From NCBI GenBank assembly GCA_951406725.2, contig OX597815.1, forward strand, positions 89,404,001-89,468,000: 64,000 nt of DNA, read 5' to 3'. The translations under genes were made by a program, and so were the position numbers. Below, piece after piece: positions 19,915 to 64,000 of this stretch. The notes under the pieces are model-generated. The model worked only from the letters and a program-made list of their open reading frames with translations. It searched no databases and had not been told where the DNA came from. The stretch is from Octopus vulgaris. Its lineage: Eukaryota. Every line of letters begins with the position of its first letter. Positions within the stretch are counted from its first letter, which is position 1.

Positions 19915-20180
19915 CGAGTCTAAGTAAGGTTGTTTATGGATGGTCAGCAGTCACCTATGCATACGAGCTTCCCCTCTACACTGATGTTATTGAAGGGAAA
20001 AGCAAAGAACGATACAACTCGTACTAGTGACATCGCAACTCATTTCTACAGCTGATTGAACAGCAGCAACATGAAATAAAGTGTCTTGCTCAAGAACACA
20101 ACACACAGTTCGATCCGGGAATCGAACTCACTACCTCATGAGTGTGAGCTTGACGTTCTAACAAGTTTGCCATGCGCCTT
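19915..20180 (-). mobile_element. tRNA-derived SINE (third family)
   Basis: Minus strand GGCGCATGGC head, GAGTTCGATTCCCGG B-box-like, then TGTGTTCTTGAGCAAGACACTTTATTTCA body. Confidence 0.7.
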
Positions 20181-20184
20181 CGCC

Positions 20185-21125
20185 AACCCTATCAAATCCC
20201 TAATCGGTAGAACCTACTCTTTTAGTAGAACCACTTGTACTGATAGGAAGTGGATTTTATGTAGATTTAGCCCACAGACAAGCTGTAAAGCTAGGAATGT
20301 AGTCTATAGTATAAGATGTACAGAGGGACGGTGCAGTAACAAGACAAGGACATACGTAGGGGAGACAGCACGGAGAATAGAAGAGCGGGTAAATGAGCGT
20401 TGGAGGGAACCTAAGAAAGAGAAGAGCTCATCGGTTCTGTACCAGCAAGCCGAGCAGGAACACGGGGGCTCACTCAACAATATAGAATTTAAAATCTTGT
20501 CCACACATAGAACAGACGCAACGTTTAGACAAATTACGGAAGCTACACACATAATAGAAGATAAACCTAGCCTGAATAGGAAACTAGAATGGACACTAGC
20601 ACCCCTCCCCCCCCCAACATACCACAACCTCTGACAGAATGGGACCCTCATAAACGGATAATAATATGAATATAATACAATACACAGATAAAGAAATGGA
20701 ATTAAAAAAACTATATACATTAACAAAATAAATCAAATTAAATTAATACAAAAATAGAAAGAAAAGAAGAAGTAAGTACATATAAACAAATGAATAAAAA
20801 AATAAAAGTAAATTAAATGAACGTGTATAAACAGGGGATACGGATAATGCAGGCACATCCCCACCCACATACACTTGCTAAACTTAGATATATGTTTAGG
20901 GATATACGCATGCGTAAATAAAGTCACATCAATAGGAATACAAAATGGCAGACTATTGGTAAGGAGAGACACACAAAACAGAAAGAAGAAAGCAAAGGAC
21001 CACTGATAAGGTCGCAGAAATGTGACAAAAGAAATACAATTAATATAAAATAAAGCTGAAGCAAGTGAACACTAAATATATAGTGCGTGTGTTTTTATTA
21101 GCTAAGCTGACAAACATGACCATCT
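20185..21125 (+). mobile_element. Penelope-like element 3' end: GIY-YIG endonuclease plus 3' repeat
   Basis: ORF 20086-20634 has SCKARNVVYSIRC..C..TYVGETARRIEERVNE...RQITEATHIIEDKPSLN; partial hammerhead-like CUGAUAA-G-GUCGCA-GAAA-UGUGAC at 21003-21026. Confidence 0.85.
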
Positions 21126-23948: not shown

Positions 23949-24225
23949 TAACCATGAGCATACATATGCAAGTATATTATCCTCATAAATTATATTTAAA
24001 GACAAGGAAAGGATAAACCTGAGTTTATAAAGAATCAAAATTTAAAGAAAACAAAATGGAGAAATATTGATGAAAGACAACTGACTTACATCAATTATTT
24101 GAATTAAAAAACAATATTTGATGTAAGTCAATAGTTGTTCAACAATATTTCTCCATTTTCTGTTTTCTTTATTTACATGCATACAAAAATACAAATACTC
24201 ACACACAAGCACACACACACACATG

Positions 24226-24295
<70 letters not shown>

Positions 24296-24296
<1 letters not shown>

Positions 24297-24708
24297 CCCA
24301 AAATTAGGGAATGGAGTAGATAAATCCAGGCCACATATATGCCATAACTAGCGAACCTCGGAAATAATAAAAGAGAAGTAGACCGAAAGCTACTCTTCAG
24401 GCCAAGGATACCTTAATTATATGAAGTTTTCATTGTCATTAGGAGATACTGTGTTAACGTGCTGGGGATTCGAACGAAATGCATTTCAAAGTGTATTCAA
24501 TCGAAAGGCATTTCCATCGAATCCCCAGCCAGCTAAAACGGGATCGACTAACAACAATGTAAGCTTCATTTAATTAAGGTGTACTTGGCCTGCAGTCTTG
24601 CTTGCGGTCTACCCCTCGTCTGGATAATTTCCTGCTCGCGAGGTTCCGCTACCTATGAAACATGTGTAGCCTGGATTTAATATATTTCATTCTCTAGTTT
24701 TTGGATGT
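24296..24708. mobile_element. ~410-bp imperfect fold-back element; each arm carries a hammerhead-like motif
   Basis: Arms pair throughout (GCTGGGGATTCG/CGAATCCCCAGC, CAGGCCAAG/CTTGGCCTG, TAAATCCAGG/CCTGGATTTA); centre ~24495; arm consensus GGC-CUGAAGA-GUAGC..GCUAC-CUAU-GAAA-C-AUGU-G-UA-GCC. Confidence 0.8.
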
Positions 24709-45534: not shown

Positions 45535-46956
45535 TTATTTCCTGTTACATTTCTTGCTGTGGCTGTGTAGTCCTATCCTGGACAAACACTCCCTCTGGCA
45601 GGTACTGCAAATGTAGCGAAGACTGTTCCTGGCTGATTGTAGTGCCATGGTCTCTTGTTTATGTCTCTTCCTTTCTTTCCATTTCTCCTCTCTCTTTCTG
45701 TCACTCCTCTGTATACCCTCTTTTACTGTACGTCGCCATTCTCCACGGTTGCCGGCGACTGCCTCCCAACCGCTAATGTTGATGTTGCAGGCCTTCATAT
45801 CCCTTTTGCAAACATCCTTGTAACGCAAGATCGGTCTACCCACAGACCTAGTACCCCTAGCAAGCTCTCCGTAGAGTATGTCCTTGGGGATTCTGCCATC
45901 TTTCATACGGCTAACATGCCCAAGCCATCTCATACGTCTTTGTGTGAGGAGTGCAAACATGCTTGGTATTCCTGCTTGCCTGAGGACATCTTTGTTGGGG
46001 ATATGATTCTGCCATTTGATGTGGAGGATTTTTCGGAGGCAGCGCAGGTGAAAGATGTTTAGGCGACGCTCTTGGCGTGTGTATAGCGTCCAGGTCTCGC
46101 TTCCATACAGTAGAGTGCTGAGTATACATGCCTGGTAGATCTTCATTTTTGTGGTCTTGGTCAGCTTATTGTTGTCCCAAGCCCGTTTGGAGAGTTGGGC
46201 CATCGCAGCAGCTGCCTTGCCAATGCGTATATTGAGCTCAGCGTCAAGGGATAGGTTGTAGGTGACGGTAGAGCCCAGATAGGTAAACTTCTCCACCTCT
46301 TGTAATCTGTGGTCTCCAATATGTATGTTTGGGATGTCCGATGTAGCCTGGCCCATGATGTTGGTCTTCTTAAGGCTGATAGCTAAGCCAAAGTCGTTAC
46401 ATGCTTGCTCAAAACAGTTAATGAGCCTTTGGAGGGCTTCTTCTGTGTGTGTTACCAGAGCGGCATCATCAGCAAATAACATCTCCTTGATCAGGACGTT
46501 TCTGATTTTGGTCTTGGCACGCAGGCGCGAGAGATTGAACAGTTTCCCGTCACTTCTACTGTGCAGAAACACTCCATCATCTGATGTCTGAAAGGCATGT
46601 GACAGCAAGAGTGAGAAGAAGATGCCAAACAATGTAGGAGCGAGGACACAGCCTTGCTTTACCCCGTTTTTTATTTGGAAGGCGGCTGATGTTGAACCGT
46701 TGTGCTGTATGGTGCCTTGCATGTCATCATGGAAAGACTTGATGATCCTCAGCAGCTTTGGTGGACATCCGATTTTTTGGAGCTGGAGGAAGAGGCCTGT
46801 TCTGCTTACCGAGTCAAAAGCCTTTGTTAGATCAATGAAGGCCATATATAATGGCATTTTCTGCTCTCTGGACTTCTCCTGAAGTTGGCGTATGGAGAAT
46901 ATCATATCGATAGTTGATCTGCTTCTTCTAAAGCCACACTGCGATTCCGGATAGAT
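45535..46956 (-). CDS. RTE ORF C-terminal part: reverse transcriptase and terminal Cys/His finger
   Basis: IYPESQCGFR, FIDLTKAFDSV, GVKQGCVLAPTLF, LFADD, FTYLGS, LLYGSETW, RWLGHV, CSTCQRECLSRIGLHSHSKKC; same frame as the upstream part. Confidence 0.95.
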   Translation of the reverse strand: MYPESQCGFRRSRSTIDMIFSIRQLQEKSREQKMPLYMAFIDLTKAFDSVSRTGLFLQLQKIGCPPKLLRIIKSFHDDMQGTIQHNGSTSAAFQIKNGVKQGCVLAPTLFGIFFSLLLSHAFQTSDDGVFLHSRSDGKLFNLSRLRAKTKIRNVLIKEMLFADDAALVTHTEEALQRLINCFEQACNDFGLAISLKKTNIMGQATSDIPNIHIGDHRLQEVEKFTYLGSTVTYNLSLDAELNIRIGKAAAAMAQLSKRAWDNNKLTKTTKMKIYQACILSTLLYGSETWTLYTRQERRLNIFHLRCLRKILHIKWQNHIPNKDVLRQAGIPSMFALLTQRRMRWLGHVSRMKDGRIPKDILYGELARGTRSVGRPILRYKDVCKRDMKACNINISGWEAVAGNRGEWRRTVKEGIQRSDRKREEKWKERKRHKQETMALQSARNSLRYICSTCQRECLSRIGLHSHSKKCNRK

Positions 46957-48579
46957 TCAAGAAGCAAGTAGTTGTAGCCTGGCCAGGATAACGCGGGCAA
47001 AGGTCTTTCCAACAGTGCTTAGAAGGGATATACCACGGTAATTGTTACAATCACCACGGTCACCTTTGTTTTTGTAGAGCGTAATGATGTTGGCATCCCG
47101 CATATCCTGAGGGACTGTACCCTCTTCCCAGCACTGACACAGAAGCTCATGAAGGTGCCGAAGCAGGATGGTGTTTTTGCCGGCTTTGATGATCTCTGAG
47201 GGGATGCCGTCTTTTCCCGGAGCCTTATTTCTTGCTAGGGAGTCAACAGCCTTGGTGAGCTCTGCTATAGATGGCGGACTGTCAAGTTCGCACATGACTG
47301 GCAAGATCTTGACACTCTCGACTGCAGCCTCAGCCACTGTGGTCTCCCGTGAGTAGAGATCCTGGTAGTGCTCCACCCATCTATTCATTTGCTTGCCTTG
47401 ATCCCTGATGAGATCTCCAGTAGTTGATTTCAGAGGGGCTGACTTGGTTGCGGATGGACCGAGGGCCTTCTTCAAACCAGCATACATCCCACGGGTGTCG
47501 CCCCTGTCAGCAGCTGACTGGATACTCTGACAGATTTCCTGCCAATACCTATTTGCACAGCATCTGGCTGTCAGTTGGGTTTTATTTCGTGCCTTTCTGA
47601 GTTCTTCGAGTGACTTTGTAGAAGAGTCACTTTTGTATTGCACCAGAGCTGCACGCTTTGCTTCGATAACTGGCTCCAGCTCTGAGAGCCCAGCATTGAA
47701 CCAATCTGGGTTTTGCCTTTCTCTCATGCCGAAAGTATCCAATGATGTCGTATACAAGGCTTCCCTGATATAGTCCCACCTACTTTCAGCAGAGGAGGTT
47801 GGGCAGCTACTGAGGGCAACCTTGATAGAAGCAGCAAAACATTTTCGCAGTGTAGGGTCCGAGGTTCTGGCGGTGTTGATGCGTGGTCGGCCCACTTTCT
47901 TGGAGCGATAGACTTTTTTAGGGAGAACCCTCACCCTGCTTCTAATTAGTGAGTGGTCTGTGTCACAATCCGCACTGTGGTAACTGCGGGTCAATAGAGT
48001 GGAACTCAGAAAGGATCTCCGTGTAATGATGAGATCCAGCTGATGCCAGTGGTGAGATCTTGGATGTCTCCAGGATGCCTTGTGGGATGGCTTGCTGGTG
48101 AAGAATGTGTTTGTGATGCACAGGATGTGGTATGTGCAGAATTCGAGTAGTCTCTGACCATTGTCATTCATGTTGCCAATACCAAAGTGTCCAACACAAA
48201 TGGGCCACGAATCATGGTCAGATCCCACGCGAGCGTTAAAATCCCCTAGAAGGTAGATATTTTCAGTCGTTGGTATATTTTCTAGGACACAGTTGATATC
48301 TTTGTAGAACTGGTCCTTGGTCTCCTCTGAGCTGTAGATAGTGGGAGCATAGATGCTGAGTAGATGTACTGAGCCAGAAGAAGTCGAGAGGCGCAGTGAG
48401 AGGATACGCTCAGTGCCTCCCGATGGTGGTTCTATTGAGGAGAGTAGTGAGTTTCTCACTGCAAAGCCAACGCCATGTTGACGAGTTTCTTCTGGATCTC
48501 TTCCCTGCCAAAAGAAGGTGAAGTCCTGCTCTTTGAGTCTGCCGTTTGAGGGAAGTCTTGTCTCCTGCAGCCCTGCAGC
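46957..48579 (-). CDS. RTE ORF N-terminal part: APE endonuclease and start of RT
   Basis: LQETRL, HGVGFAV, SIYAPT, LLGDFNARVG, WHQLDLII, DCDTDHSL, KAPGKDGIP, NYRGISLLS; ends at an in-frame TGA at 46957-46959. Confidence 0.93.
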   Translation of the reverse strand, partial: AAGLQETRLPSNGRLKEQDFTFFWQGRDPEETRQHGVGFAVRNSLLSSIEPPSGGTERILSLRLSTSSGSVHLLSIYAPTIYSSEETKDQFYKDINCVLENIPTTENIYLLGDFNARVGSDHDSWPICVGHFGIGNMNDNGQRLLEFCTYHILCITNTFFTSKPSHKASWRHPRSHHWHQLDLIITRRSFLSSTLLTRSYHSADCDTDHSLIRSRVRVLPKKVYRSKKVGRPRINTARTSDPTLRKCFAASIKVALSSCPTSSAESRWDYIREALYTTSLDTFGMRERQNPDWFNAGLSELEPVIEAKRAALVQYKSDSSTKSLEELRKARNKTQLTARCCANRYWQEICQSIQSAADRGDTRGMYAGLKKALGPSATKSAPLKSTTGDLIRDQGKQMNRWVEHYQDLYSRETTVAEAAVESVKILPVMCELDSPPSIAELTKAVDSLARNKAPGKDGIPSEIIKAGKNTILLRHLHELLCQCWEEGTVPQDMRDANIITLYKNKGDRGDCNNYRGISLLSTVGKTFARVILARLQLLAS

Positions 48580-48893
48580 CCATAATTAGTTCATAACTAA
48601 TGCACATTTAGCTTTCTACCTCTAGAAACGATACTATATTAATTCTTTCCAGATTACTATTCATAGAGACATATATACAGTAGATTAGTATAGAAACTAG
48701 TATCTTTCATAAGCTTAATTCCACAAATTGCAAAATATGAACACGTTATTTAAAAATTAATAAATTTGAAGTGTGTTTGCTTAGTTAAGTATTTAAAACT
48801 AATAAAAGAAAAGATCGTGTAATTTCATGTTACAATCTAATCACATGAACAATTAAATATATTTTACTGTCGAATAAAAATGGTTAATATATA

Positions 48894-53003: not shown

Positions 53004-53148
53004 TTATATATAAGAGTGTATAAATGTTTATACACGGAGAGAAGACCCGTAAAGGAGTTCTTACATGCGACTTCCCTTTTTAACATGTAAGAAGTCCTGT
53101 TATGAGTATTCTCTCCGTGTATAAACCTTTATTCACTCTTATATATAT
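53004..53148. repeat. ~145-bp imperfect fold-back element
   Basis: TATAAGAGTG..TTTATACACGGAGAGAA..TTCTTACATG pairs with CATGTAAGAA..TTCTCTCCGTGTATAAA..CACTCTTATA. Confidence 0.85.
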
Positions 53149-53229: not shown

Positions 53230-55435
53230 TTCATTTACAATCTTATAAAAATATAATATAATATAATATACTATTTAAATGAAAGAATATTAAATGTTCA
53301 TTCTGACTGAACTAGAACTTTCATGCCTTAAACTATGCAATCTTCAGGTTCATGTAGTAGTGGTTTTACAAATTACAACTGTAGTGAGATGGCTAAAATG
53401 TGTGCCTTAAATGCATTTGTACAGGCTCCAGAATGTTAAATTTTGCAAACTGTGTTATGACCAATCAATGTGTGGCTTCATTAAATTACTTAAGTTGATT
53501 AGTGTTTGGTTTAGGCGTCACGGTTTGTTAAACATGTGCAGTGACCTGTATTTTGATCCTAGCCAAAGCAGTAAGCGTTTGGCTATTTTTAGAAATGTAA
53601 CATTTTCTAGTGATTTTTACATTTCAGTTATCATCATTACCGTTATCGTCACCTTTATTATTTTTATCATTGTTGTTGGTGGTGGTGGTAGCAGCTGTGG
53701 TAATGGAACTTTAACTCTAAATAAGATTATTTCTACTGACCGTTCTTTTAGCTAGTATTTTCCTGTTATCATCATAATGAGAACCTTTAGTATTGTTTTT
53801 GTTGTAAGCTGTAGAAGTAGTACCTCTAAGTATTATTATTATTCTTTATTTAGCTTGTGTTGGAATTTATCAATAAAGTTCTTTTCTTTGACATTTCTTA
53901 CGATTTCACTTAGACTGTATAGTTTGTAGAATGGAAATGTTATAAATATTTCTAGATGGTTACTCAGAGGTATCTGACGGACATCTGGATCTCTAATTTG
54001 CTGTCGGTACACACGTGAACGTTCTGATAGAACATTTCCAGTCTGACCCACATAGCTTCTTCAGAATTCGAGCATTTGAGGCAGTAAAATAAAAAGAAAT
54101 GATTTTGCAATTCATATTTGCGTTTGTGAATATTTTTCGGTTGTTTTGTGTTCATATATTTGGCAGTATGTATGAATTGGCATGTGCCACAGCGGCTGTC
54201 ATTGCATTCTGATACAGTGAATGACTGATCTTTGTTGCTAAGGTCAAAATGTTGTCTTTGTTAATGATGTTTTAATAATATTTCAAGCTGTCTTTTACTA
54301 AGAACTATAAGCCAATCCGATATTATATGTTTCCATTCATTACTTTGGTAGGTTTACTTTGGCAATGTTGAAGATATTCTGGTGACATGGGTTGTGTGTC
54401 ACTATAAATGGTATGACTTGTTCCTGTTTTCCTCTTCTTTGGGTCGTCCCCAGTTGTTCTATGGGTATTTTTATAGCCTGCTATGCCATTTTCTAAAAGT
54501 GGAGACAGGTAAATTTGTTTGAGCAAAAATTTTCTTAGTTCTGTTATGCGTTTGTTCAAAAAGAATGGTACACATTCTTCTGGCTAGGCTGTATGGGATG
54601 TTGCGCTTTGTATGTGGTGGATGACACGACTTAAAGTTCAGGTATTGATGTGTGTCCGTGTGTTTATAGTATATCTGTGGTAATGACGGTGTCCTTTTTA
54701 ATTACTATTATATCTAGGAGTGGTAATTTGGTACTACTCATCTCCTTTGTAATTTGGTGAGATGCGTATAGGTTGCTCAGGAGTATATTGAACTTCCAGA
54801 ATATTTAGTGATTCTATCCAGATTATGAAGCAGTCGTCAAGATAACTCTTCCATGCCTTTTCACTATAATTTCTAAATTCAGTGCTATAGTTTTTTTCCT
54901 GTTTCTTATTAGAGTTGTTCTAAATATCCCATTACAGAATTCTCGTAAACAGGCGCAAACCTTGTTCCCATCACCGTTCCTTTAATTTGAATGTAATTAT
55001 TTCTATTAAAGAAGAAGGTGTTGTTTTCTTGAATACGACTGACTGTGTCTAATATAAATGGCACTCTGAATCTCTTGGGAATCTCTTCACTATGTTTTTC
55101 TACCAAGTATTTAATTAGCTTTATTCCTAAATCCTGTGGAATATTGGTGTAAAGGATTAAAACATCAAAACTAAGTAAAAGTGGATTTCTTTCTGTTGTT
55201 TTGTGAAGGTGGGGCAGGAAGTCGATATCATTCCTGATGAAACTGGTTATGTAGGTGCATAGTGATTTCAAAACAATGTCGATAAAATTGCTTAGACGGT
55301 CGGTAGGACATGTTCTACCAGCAATAATAGGTATAAGTTTTAAGTCTTTTGTATATAGTGATTTTATGTACTCACTTTCTTTTTCTTTTACAGCATGCTG
55401 AATATATTTTGACTTATGTATTTTCGGTAGGCAGT
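53230..55435 (-). mobile_element. Penelope-like element relic: RT, GIY-YIG and 3' repeat with hammerhead
   Basis: YCLPKIHKS, PIIAG..CPTDRLSNFIDIVLK, SFDVLILYTNIP, YIQIKGTVMGTRFAPVY, WKSYLDDCFIIW and GQTGNVLSERSRVYRQQIRD; endonuclease resembles that of 13157-14198. Confidence 0.92.
53308..53352 (-). ncRNA. Minimal type-I hammerhead ribozyme motif
   Basis: UGAAC-CUGAAGA-U-UGC..GCA-U-GAAA-G-UU-C-UA-GUUCA; 5-bp stem I; canonical CUGANGA and GAAA; downstream of and on the same strand as the PLE ORF. Confidence 0.72.
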
Positions 55436-55449
55436 ATTCCTCATACAAG

Positions 55450-56028
55450 ACTAGAAAGGGTCGAATTTTATTCCAAGTCATCAATGACAAGAGGAAAGAC
55501 CGTGCTACGAAGCTTTTGAACAAACTCCAGCATCCCCTTCAGAGGAACGTGCTTTGGTTTTTCTCCGACGAGGAAAATTTCTGCCAGGATCAGGTGGTGA
55601 ACACATAGAGCAACCGTTGGCTTGTCGTATCTCCAAAACCTACTGAGGGTGATGAATATCAGACATCCAGTCAAATCAAGGTGTTTGGAGTGATCACTAG
55701 TGATGGCGGCGCTATGCTTCCATTCATCTTCCCACACGGCCTCAGACTCAACACAGAGGCCTACATCAAGTGTCTGGAGGAGGTAGTGTTGCCCTGGGTC
55801 AAGTGAGTGGCTGCTGGAAGACACTATGTCTGGCAATGGGACTCTGCACCATTCCATACAATCAGGATAACCCAGTCATGGCTATCAAACAATTTCTACG
55901 ACCACATTACTCCTAACATCTCTCCACCCAACTTCAATGACTGCAACCTCATTGATTATTACGTGAGGCGCAGTTGAGCGAGAGACCAGCAAAGTTACTT
56001 GTAACATCAAAGATGAACTGAAAGTAAG
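55450..56028 (+). mobile_element. Tc1/mariner-superfamily DD37D (maT-like) transposase fragment
   Basis: LWFFSDEENF, VFGVITSDG, YVWQWDSAPFH then 37 residues to the Asp of DCNLIDYYV; stops present. Confidence 0.88.
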
Positions 56029-59656: not shown

Positions 59657-59724
<68 letters not shown>

Positions 59725-59870
59725 AAATAGAAAGATGAATAATCTTGTAGTAGATTAATCAAAAGTTTAACCGATACCTTAGTAGCAAAAATCACAGCAG
59801 TAAACAGCACGGTTGGAGGTACAACCATATGGTGTTGCAACCGTGCGTTGGTGCGGATAATTGAAATTAA

Positions 59871-60059
59871 AACATTATTGGTGAATTGAAGAAATGGAGC
59901 TGAACGCAGATTGAACAGAAATCGTTTTATTTCATTCTACACGTGTTTCGAAAGGCACAAATTGTGGTAATTTGTGCCTTTCGAAACACGTGTAGAATGA
60001 AATAAAACGATTTCTGTTCAATCTGCGTTCAGCTCCATTTCTTCAATTCACCAATAATG

Positions 60060-60061
<2 letters not shown>
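59871..60061. repeat. Perfect palindrome: 93-bp arms and a 5-nt loop (GTGGT)
   Basis: 59871-59963 reads as the exact reverse complement of 59969-60061; each arm read outward contains C-GAAA-C-ACGU-G-UA then AATAAA. Confidence 0.97.
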
Positions 60062-60096
<35 letters not shown>

Positions 60097-60098
<2 letters not shown>

Positions 60099-61465
60099 AA
60101 AACAAAAGAAACAGACAGGTGGTGTAGACAACAAACTAGTATTAGTATAACGCTCGGGAATTGAAAAAGTCATTAACGTTTCGAGACTACGCTCTTCCAC
60201 AGAAAGAAACAAGGACAGAAACAAGGACAGAAAAGAAAAAATGTGTGCACTGGCTACCGATCTAACATGGCGAATGCCGGGCAAAGGGTCACACGGTGAC
60301 GCTAAGATGGAGGAGAGATAACAAAGTAGTAGTGTTCCCAAAACGAAGGTGCGTGTGTGTGTAAGAGAGTACGTAAGTGCGTGTGAAAGAGGCTGGTGAT
60401 CGTGACGTGTGCGTGTGTGTATGTGTAGGTATAAAAATGTGGGGATGGGAATTGGTCAGTGCTGTTGTGTGCGTGGTCGTGTGTTGTGATGTGATGTTTT
60501 GTGTGGTATGGTGTAATGTGGTGTTGTGTGATGTTGGGATGTGGGGGAGGCGAGAGTGGAGAAAGCACGGGTGGGATGTGGGTTAGACTGAGGGTCGGGT
60601 ATGTGGGTAGGCAGAGGGTGGGGGTAGAGGTAGGGTATGTGGGAGAAGGTGTAAGGGATGGGATGGGGATGGATGGGAAGGATAGGGAAGGTGGGTTAGG
60701 AATGTGTAGGATTCGGGTGGGTTTATGGGGAGGGTTGACGATGGAGGGGGAAGGGAAAGGTGGGTATGAGAGAAGAGAGAAGAGAGAAAGAGAGTAGGAG
60801 TAAAGAGAAGTAAGAGTAGGAGCAAGAGAGGAGAGGTGTGGGAGGAAGTAGGAGGGAGGGGGAGAAAGGCAAGGGGATGTGGTTAGATGAAGAGGGGAAG
60901 AGAGCTGAGCTCATGTGGCGCAAAGGAGCGAAGAGAGAAGATTAATCCATGTTCACGCCGCAAGGACAAATGTGAACACGGACAGGTGTTGCAAAGAGTG
61001 AGCGGTAGAGTGGAAATTGCGTGAGACCGGAATGTCATTGCCGAGGCGGATGTCTCGGAGGTGTTCCGCGAACAGGTCAGCCAAGAGGCGTCCCGTTTAT
61101 CGGATGTACACAGAATGGCAGAGAGAGCAGGAGATGCAATAGATGATATAGGTAGAAGTTCAAGTGAAGGAGTCGGTGATGTGATAGGGTCGATGATGGG
61201 TGCCGTTGAGGAGGGTCTTGTTGGAGAGGTAAGGGCAAGTGCGGCAGCGAAGGCGGGAGCAGGAGAACGAGCCAGGTTGGGTGGTTGGGGAAGAAGCTGT
61301 GGACCAAGAGGTCTCGTAGTTTGTGAGCTCATTTGAAGGAGGGGAGGTGTCGGTTAGTGAAGATGTGTGAAGTGGGGGTTCGGTCTGGAGACGCCGGAAA
61401 GCTCGGAGAATGGTGCGTTGGAAAGGTAATGTTAGTGGGGTGGGAGGTGAGGGGGAAAGGGATAG
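60097..61465 (-). mobile_element. Penelope-like element 3' fragment: Cys linker, GIY-YIG, CT-rich UTR and terminal repeat
   Basis: KLRDLLVHS, CSRLRCRTCPYL, IIYCISCSLCHSVYIR*TGRLLADLFAEHLRDIR..IPVSRNF; hammerhead-like CUGUGGA-A-GAG..CUC-GAAA-CGU-UA at ~60168-60208. Confidence 0.88.
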
Positions 61466-61649: not shown

Positions 61650-62095
61650 TATATATATATATATATACACACACAAACACACACACACACACATACACAC
61701 ACACACTCACACACTCTCACACACACATATATATATATATATATTTCAGTATGTGTGTGTTTATATAATTTCTTAGTTCAGCTCTCTCTCTATATATGTA
61801 TATATGTTTGTGAGACTATATGTATTTACATATGCCAAGTCATCTTATTGGATACGTGTATTTTGTAATCAAGTAATGTAAGACCTCATACTCACAGACA
61901 TACTTGGCAATTTACCTTATACCATCTACAAAAATATAAGAGCACTTGGGAACAACAAGGATGTGTATAAACTACAATAACTCTAGACAAATTATTAATC
62001 CATGGACCAATAATTACTTGAGTGTATCAGTTATAATAACTTTCGTACTCGAAACGTTACTGAAACATCTAATTAGCTTTGAGAATAACGAGAAT

Positions 62096-62127
<32 letters not shown>

Positions 62128-62241
62128 ATATATATATATATACTTAATTATACTTAATTATATCAAAGGGAAATGGAAATTAATTTAAATTATAATTTCC
62201 AGTGGCTTAACGTGTAAAAGTTTAGTCCAAAGACTATGTAT

Positions 62242-63001
62242 TAGCCATAAAATACAGTGTATATTTAAACACATAAGGAATCCACTCGTGGGATTCAACA
62301 CAATAGAAAGCTAAAAAGCTAGAAAGCTATAGAACAGCTAGGTTCTATAACCACAAGATATAGATATAAAATTCGATAGGAACGAAATGAAAAAATAAAA
62401 ACATTTTGCCCTCTAGTTTCCTGGACCAATTGGTTTCTGATTTTAGTTTAGCAAGCAAATAACCCTTACACGCTAGGTAAAATCGTCTTCAGCAGGTACA
62501 CCCTAGATAAATATATAAACACGAGGGGATCAAACTATGTGCCTCTTCTTTATACATCCTATTATCACTGGAAATGATAGTTTTAATTATTTTCCATTTC
62601 CCTTTGATATAATTAAGTATTGTAAGTTTTTGGATAATTTTCGGTTTTTAAATGTCGGCATTTTTTTATTGCCGGCGAAGGGTTGCGTCTGCGCAGTAGA
62701 ATTTGAAAACTTTAGTATATATAAACAAGAGACACATAGTTTGATCGCCTCGTGTTTATATATTTATCTAAGGTTGGAGACGATTTCACCTGGCGGGTAA
62801 AGGTTATTTGCTTGCTAAACTAAAATCAGAAACCAATTGGTCCAGGAAACTAGATGTTAAAATGTTTTTATTTTTTCATTTCGTTCCTGTCGAAATTAAT
62901 CCCTAATTTTGTGGTTATAGAACCTAGCTGTTCTTTCTAGCGTGTTGAATCCCACGAGTGGATTCCTTATATGTTTAAATGTACACTGCATTTTATGACT
63001 A
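62242..63001. mobile_element. ~760-bp fold-back element: ~300-bp inverted arms, ~160-bp spacer, hammerhead in each arm
   Basis: 62242-62557 is a diverged reverse complement of 62717-63001 (TAAGGAATCCACTCGTGGGATTCAACAC / GTGTTGAATCCCACGAGTGGATTCCTTA); no meaningful ORF. Confidence 0.92.
62420..62496 (-). ncRNA. Type-I hammerhead ribozyme motif (best in window)
   Basis: CCUG-CUGAAGA-C-GAUUUUA..UAAAAUC-A-GAAA-CC-AAUU-GG-UC-CAGG; all three stems pair; GUC cleavage triplet; palindromic stem III; sister copy at 62774-62846 (+) has a damaged core. Confidence 0.8.
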
Positions 63002-63625: not shown

Positions 63626-63714
63626 ATAAGGGTGGAAAGGAACACACGAGTTGATATATATGAAAAAACAAGTCAAAAATAGAAAATGCTAAGATGATTT
63701 TATAGTGAATCTTT

Positions 63715-63752
63715 CAGTACCGGTTTCGGTCATTTTGAGACCTTTTCAACTG
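63715..63752 (-). ncRNA. Hammerhead-like motif with UUGAAAA core variant
   Basis: CAG-UUGAAAA-GGUC-UCAAAAU-GACC-GAAA-CCGG-UA-CUG. Confidence 0.55.
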
Positions 63753-64000
63753 TAACGATAAAATAATTAAATTTAGAAAAATTGGAAAAAAAGTTTTTTT
63801 AAAAGAATATTTCTGTAGTAGTGTTCAGATATAAGTAGCATTCTGCCTTTCTCTGACTCCCTTGTTTGCACTTGTGTGTTCGAGGTCGTACTCGAAACGT
63901 TACTGAAACATCTAATTAGCTTTGAGAATAACGAGAATATATATATATATAATATATATATACTATAGAAGTGGAACCGCAAAGGATGGAACCAAACAGC

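Follow-up and report, generated by a model that had tools for sequence, protein, structure and literature searches.

How did a perfect palindrome come to stand within a (TA)n microsatellite in the 64-kb stretch of DNA analysed here, hereafter referred to as the window? Comparison of the left arm (59871-59963) with the right arm (59969-60061) in the window sequence revealed complementarity at 93 of 93 pairs around a 5-nt loop, GTGGT (59964-59968), with the first mismatch at 59870/60062, confirming in the assembled sequence the 191-bp palindrome with mismatch-free 93-bp arms that an earlier note had described. It is the longest perfect inverted repeat of the window, followed by a TA-rich one of 22 bp, and a perfect inverted repeat of 93 bp has a chance expectation of ~7e-47. 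No second copy of the palindrome, of an arm or of the parent's continuation was found elsewhere in the 64-kb window, and no copy of the whole palindrome occurs among the matches listed (27 of 6164 public-run pieces). The outward-reading motif GCCUUUC-GAAA-C-ACGU-G-UA-GAAUG-AAAUAAAA was likewise recovered on both arms, at 59976-60007 (+) and 59925-59956 (-). That the structure was "folded at stem II" is, however, an interpretation rather than an observation, and the unit measures 340 bp instead of 191 bp, as the same repeat extends the left arm by 149 nt to 59722 (Table 1).

The origin of the arms was traced with contigs of four public sequencing runs (X1, X2, X12 and X16), which were aligned to 59722-60064 and of which 4716, 629, 788 and 3 per run could be placed. 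Sampled words from 59730-60062 are carried at 74-87% by 20 of the 24 listed runs, found under six organism codes, some of these runs being possibly mixed samples; the four runs aligned represent three of these codes, and none of the runs listed is an RNA run. The summed depth reaches 1e4-1e6 in three large runs compared with 8-81 for 12 of 15 single-junction contigs, from which it is a fair inference that the parent repeat exists in thousands of copies, depth not being equal to copy number. Because contig cover is continuous from 59722 and without gap up to 59963, the repeat also includes the 149 nt that adjoin the palindrome on its left; the records bridging 59870/59871 include X1 records 7 and 8 and X2 record 27. 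X2 records 25 and 27 match the long copy with 0 other letters, and X2 records 25 and 26 stop three letters past 59722. At the loop, at least 41 plus 11 contigs of X1, at least 8 of X16 and at least one of X2 depart from the reference into other sequence, counts that rest on 19 of 104 rows and hence are lower bounds. The parent repeat is non-palindromic and very abundant. With X2 record 27, a contig of 2962 nt that matches 59804-59963 with 0 differences and continues for 2.8 kb past the match, its length amounts to at least 3.0 kb, which, as an argument from length only, speaks against a short tandem unit of the non-LTR retrozyme kind. The locus thus represents the terminal 250 nt of the repeat, whose 3' end is assigned from a half-hammerhead, and the RNA sense of the long copy would be the minus strand. 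The continuation of the parent beyond the arm is known from 30 letters, and a pattern scan for it returned none in metagenome contigs, viral contigs and prokaryote genomes.

These public-run contigs support the earlier view that the arms derive from a parent repeat, namely the end of an abundant, non-palindromic one with Penelope-like traits: a (TA)n target, a half-hammerhead with palindromic stem III, and recurrent head-to-head junctions. Judged from the repeat end alone, the parent is likely a Penelope-like retroelement (PLE). Runs X1 and X16, which share one organism code, differ in variant share at 59801 (10% vs 86%) and 59803 (5% vs 77%), a subfamily difference suggesting recent lineage-specific bursts.

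Table 1. Features of the palindromic locus and its flanks, with positions in the window.
Feature	Position	Strand	Basis
(TA)30 run, left portion of the target microsatellite	59662..59721		sequence
Long copy of the repeat end, 242 nt, long terminus at 59722	59722..59963	-	family contigs
149-nt extension, long copy only; gap between the two termini; comparable to a PLE tail (30-40 nt) but longer	59722..59870	-	contigs bridging 59870/59871
Perfect palindrome, left arm	59871..59963	+	complementarity
3-nt overlap ATT common to both copies; junction microhomology	59961..59963		contig loose ends
5-nt loop; parent sequence of the right (short) copy	59964..59968	+	arms and contigs
Short inverted copy, 101 nt, second terminus equivalent to 59871	59961..60061	+	X12 contigs
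Type I hammerhead-like 3' half with AATAAA, without 5' core	59976..60007	+	sequence
Mirrored half-hammerhead, predicted cut between 59938 and 59937	59925..59956	-	sequence
(TA)n run, right portion of the target microsatellite	60062..60096		sequence

Within the (TA)n flanks no target-site duplication is discernible, and the right flank is unrelated to the left flank and not a mirror of it. For the 71-codon open frame on the minus strand of the stub, none of 28 candidate homologs reached E 0.01, which is weak evidence, and no Pfam match was obtained. The reading of the hairpin as a miRNA precursor was rejected, its best Rfam match (MIR5565, 59.9 bits against a cut-off of 80) being a generic hairpin match. 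The AATAAA, proposed earlier as a polyA-like signal in the arms, was not accepted as such either, for its distance from the termini is 55-200 nt, the surrounding DNA is AT-rich and no poly(A) comes after it.

Turning to the hammerhead, the motif at 59976-60007 comprises CGAAA, a stem III of the AC-ACGT-GT type and GUA, with a predicted cut after 59994; its format was compared with the table in file S2 of PMC8557442, as far as this table was available. GAAA, stem III and an NUH cut triplet are thus present at the locus. The same half-hammerhead pattern fits four other sites of the window and is weak when taken alone, and there was no Rfam hammerhead match at the palindrome site. CUGANGA is absent from both strands of 59722-60061, and the 48 parent letters upstream of GAAA, read by eye, hold neither CUGANGA nor any UGA; in the PMC8557442 table, the canonical rows seen place the end of the core no more than ~30 nt from GAAA. 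At the fold point the parent reads ATT-5 nt-AAT, a hairpin of 3 bp only, and the GAAAGGC/GCCUUUC pairing is present in the mirror and not in the parent. With a hairpin this short and CUGANGA missing from those 48 letters, a canonical stem II does not exist in the parent where the fold lies, and the stem II apparent in the palindrome is a product of the mirror itself. Consequently, two expectations of the earlier note found no support within the 48 nt read, namely that the fold had occurred on a stem II hairpin of the parent and that the parent would show CUGANGA upstream of the central hairpin. Its description of a 3' half-hammerhead in which the mirror copy takes the place of CUGANGA stood in part: the 3' half is there and CUGANGA is missing, but a CUGANGA of the parent, for which it would have been substituted, was not found within those 48 nt. 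A complete hammerhead is not present at the locus. The parent might have one whose stem II is long and whose core is farther upstream, in which case the fold would lie in the 3' strand and not at the apex; two deviant rows in the seen part of the PMC8557442 table have such a long stem II. Elsewhere in the window, 63699-63763 (-) gives a weak match to Rfam Hammerhead_HH9 (19.4 bits, E 0.67) with a UUGAAAA core variant.

The architecture of the junction constrains how the two arms could have been made. On the right side, the match to the commonest X1 parent variant begins at 59961 and so takes in the loop plus three more letters; at least 41 X1 contigs align from this position on the right copy, and the parent matches the left copy up to 59963 (X2). 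From these alignment limits it follows that the long copy occupies 59722-59963 and the short inverted copy 59961-60061, with ATT common to both. The loop has parent orientation on the minus strand, whose 5' arm is the short arm, and is reversed on the plus strand. A cDNA that had been primed at the long terminus and then snapped back would place the parent-orientation loop on the plus strand, and one primed at the short terminus could by snapping back copy 93 nt only and not the further 149 nt. Simple snap-back of a target-attached cDNA therefore fails on loop polarity and on the 93-nt copy limit, which leaves two readings, either two joined cDNAs or a trimmed free hairpin. In X12, at least 7 plus 2 contigs carry the terminus of the short copy directly against (TA)n; accordingly, this terminus is recurrent and not a random deletion.

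Joints of the repeat number 22 in all. Among the 16 visible ones, 15 are other head-to-head junctions, and the sixteenth was dropped as a plain deletion. They are scattered over many positions; extra letters (3-17) occur in 5 of the 16 visible joints, spacers of 26-208 nt in five, and an overlap of 0-1 nt in 6 of the 14 tabulated head-to-head rows. Each of the 15 other junctions is represented in a single run by a single short contig whose shorter side has 20-28 letters; none is common to several runs, and some of them may be library chimeras. In 6 of 15 cases the farthest junction end falls at 59931-59939, next to the cut predicted at 59937/8, and in 7 of 15 it lies beyond this cut. The p value for this clustering is 0.007-0.016 at 59931-59939, 0.18-0.28 at 59932-59942 and 0.09-0.19 at 59928-59947, the statistic covering 16 of the 22 joints, with junctions ending past 59963 invisible. 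As it disappears on a slight shift of the interval, the clustering at the predicted cut is not robust and serves as a lead only.

We favour, with a probability of about 0.58, that two truncated copies of the repeat end (242 and 101 nt) were joined head to head in (TA)n through the joining of two separately primed cDNAs. The endonuclease of the element would nick both strands of the TA tract, whereupon one target 3' end would prime reverse transcription at the long terminus (59722) and the other at the short terminus (the equivalent of 59871). Both cDNAs would then stall ~25-35 nt upstream of where the ribozyme is predicted to cut, with no more than 8 nt between their stopping points, and their 3' ends, ATT and AAT, would anneal and be filled in. 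The loop polarity fits two primers without an extra step, and the extra letters and long spacers at other junctions suit end-joining of separate cDNAs better than self-priming. According to the part of PMC11167929 available, the Poseidon PLE protein in vitro nicks and extends both target strands with two internal initiation sites, and does not require ribozyme cleavage. Among the points against joining of two primed cDNAs, no RT or GIY-YIG ORF was seen in the 30 known letters of the parent's continuation, the termini lie 149 nt apart compared with a PLE tail of 30-40 nt, and the junction sits on the 3-bp micro-hairpin of the parent, which would suit self-priming as well. The resulting stub, carrying neither an ORF nor a complete ribozyme, is predicted to be inert debris whose transcript would form one long hairpin.

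This last point leads to the alternative that an antisense RNA or free first-strand cDNA folded on the 3-bp hairpin and copied itself up to the long terminus, the short terminus arising when the template arm was cut or primed there in the course of integration, a sequence of events that we consider unlikely, although it is the foremost rival. It needs exactly the loop polarity found, the junction at the locus falls precisely on the micro-hairpin of the commonest parent variant and has no inserted letters, and the accessible text of PMC3846280 explains head-to-head palindromes by self-priming on an antisense template. The price is that 149 nt must be removed at a specific site in a second step and that a hairpin of 3 bp makes a weak primer, and the other junctions, with their overlaps of 0-1 nt (6 of 14 rows), long spacers or inserts, weigh against it. 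Asymmetric trimming of this sort differs from the snap-back of a PLE cDNA on stem II advanced earlier, which is not supported, since the loop polarity demands extra trimming and the other junctions are varied, 5 of 16 with inserts. A DNA fold-back after insertion, through a template switch during replication or repair at ATT/AAT within an existing single copy, appears very improbable. (TA)n tracts are fragile, and an intermolecular template switch is known to give a centre-inverted junction at a short inverted repeat, both of which count in its favour; it does not, however, predict a short arm ending at a recurrent family terminus beside (TA)n, nor many junctions concentrated in this repeat end. 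Least credible of all is the insertion at TA of a palindromic MITE or a fold-back DNA transposon: terminal-looking perfect arms, TA flanks and high copy number would agree with it, but the parent is non-palindromic, the same repeat continues the left arm by a further 149 nt, and the palindrome has no second copy in the window or among the listed contigs. A multi-copy unit bounded by TIRs was thus not encountered, and this candidate is largely refuted.

It also had to be considered whether the palindrome is an assembly or amplification chimera, in which a fold-back read or polishing created or homogenised the arms. Among the matches listed (27 of 6164 pieces) no contig spans the palindrome centre, the best runs carry 20 of 23 sampled words of the stretch, and the arms are perfectly identical, as a chimera would have it. 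The three missing words of 23 are, however, about what a private junction would account for, and contigs of other individuals are expected to lack a junction that is private or single-copy. Moreover, the mirror ends after 93 nt exactly at the terminus found directly against (TA)n in the contigs of a different run, the loop is genuine parent sequence, the right flank does not mirror the left one, and older decayed palindromes exist in the same window; taken together, these points make an artefact improbable. The older palindromes, at 24296-24705, 24043-24171 and 53013-53139, lie beside TA/CA repeats with arm identities of 73%, 81% and 78%, and are possibly decayed head-to-head stubs. As to age, the left copy is identical to X2 contigs 25 and 27 and the two arms are identical to each other, which bounds divergence at ~0.9% over 335 nt and, in keeping with the earlier note, makes the copy young, even if polishing or conversion could also equalise arms.

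Several further elements lie around the locus. At 60097-61465 (-), sharing the (TA)n tract with the locus, we found a broken 3' portion belonging to another Penelope-like element, which we take to be Neptune-like and which shows a CxxxxCxxC linker and a GIY-YIG-like YIIYCISC..VYI motif with stops, without a Pfam match; a degenerate hammerhead-like motif is located within it near 60170-60200. An inverted repeat at 62246-62997 (arms of ~300 nt at 83%, spacer of 173 nt) ends at (TA)n and is overlapped by a second, 55-nt inverted pair at 62150-62620, together constituting a fold-back element or a nested inverted stub. A 77-nt direct repeat (62043-62119 and 63886-63962, 97%) carries CGAAACGTTA, ends in (TA)n and probably represents the ends of a third PLE-type family. 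More distant are a near-intact, presumably RTE-like LINE at 45535-48585 (-), in which one stop divides a 542-aa endonuclease frame from a 473-aa RT frame, and, from other families, a GIY-YIG fragment at 20080-20634 (+), whose Pfam E of 0.034 does not pass the cut-off, and a PLE-like RT fragment at 54909-55538 (-).

Overall, the locus is a young head-to-head stub that behaves like an inverted PLE end, membership in the PLEs being likely from its sequence traits. As a single locus it is of little weight, being inert debris of an already described kind, and as a junction it provides a clean data point on how Penelope-like elements build inverted ends: loop polarity and the second terminus together exclude the simplest snap-back and point to two primers or to a snap-back trimmed at a fixed site. 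As the family is both abundant and young, a genome-wide table of junctions could separate these two. A bolder version, in which a long-stem-II hammerhead of the family cuts in vivo and sets the cDNA stop and inverted ends arise by twin priming at sites 149 nt apart, strikes us as doubtful. If it were true, the thousands of copies would allow both the origin of inverted pLTRs and the function of the PLE ribozyme to be tested on genome sequence alone.

A mechanistic precedent is offered by L1 twin priming, where two target-primed cDNAs are joined by microhomology to give an inversion and mostly copy adjacent, non-overlapping parts; at the present locus, in contrast, the same 93 nt were copied twice, which yields a palindrome. 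Among the literature listed for twin priming together with Penelope and inversion, no title concerned the PLE mechanism, and all full-text matches listed for the motifs of the locus were unrelated by title. For the Poseidon element PAc of Anolis, the text of PMC11167929 at hand describes nicking and extension of both strands and two internal initiation sites, in agreement with two primers; inverted products are not modelled in that part, and the sites lie one tail length (30-40 nt) apart.

The claim that the palindrome would be a direct footprint of how inverted pLTRs arise loses its novelty, since such palindromes have already been described as common for Penelope-like elements. The available part of PMC3846280 reports abundant head-to-head inverted repeats with junction palindromes and proposes self-priming on an antisense template. 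As depicted there, Pen2a_Av and Pen3a of Adineta vaga share with the locus a head-to-head inverted 5'-truncated copy, a junction palindrome, an inverted copy that is the shorter one, an extension at one end and an AT-rich target. In comparison with these excerpted examples (PMC3846280), both copies at the locus are ORF-less stubs, the extension measures 149 nt instead of 31-37 nt, and a TSD is not discernible in (TA)n.

In the sections of PMC8557442 available, an inverted 5'-truncated copy is a frequent PLE feature and (TA)n targeting is listed, and four 11-12-nt motifs of the locus gave 0 matches in the part of its supplement searched. The hammerhead half of the locus differs from the Hydra-1_Obim hammerhead given there, and CUGANGA is absent at the canonical distance. 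The short palindromic stem III is shared with the PLE minimal type I hammerheads of PMC4209133, of which the locus possesses the 3' half only; the portion of that paper at hand describes pairs of hammerhead motifs on opposite strands, 100-700 bp apart. Agreement in target, size and motif is provided by the Hydra- and Neptune-clade PLEs in the rows seen of PMC8557442, such as Penelope-13_HM with its inverted 5' copy and Hydra-1_Obim, which have in common with the locus the targeting of (TA)n, a length of ~3 kb and a 3' hammerhead half of the form stem II-CGAA-AC..GT-A.
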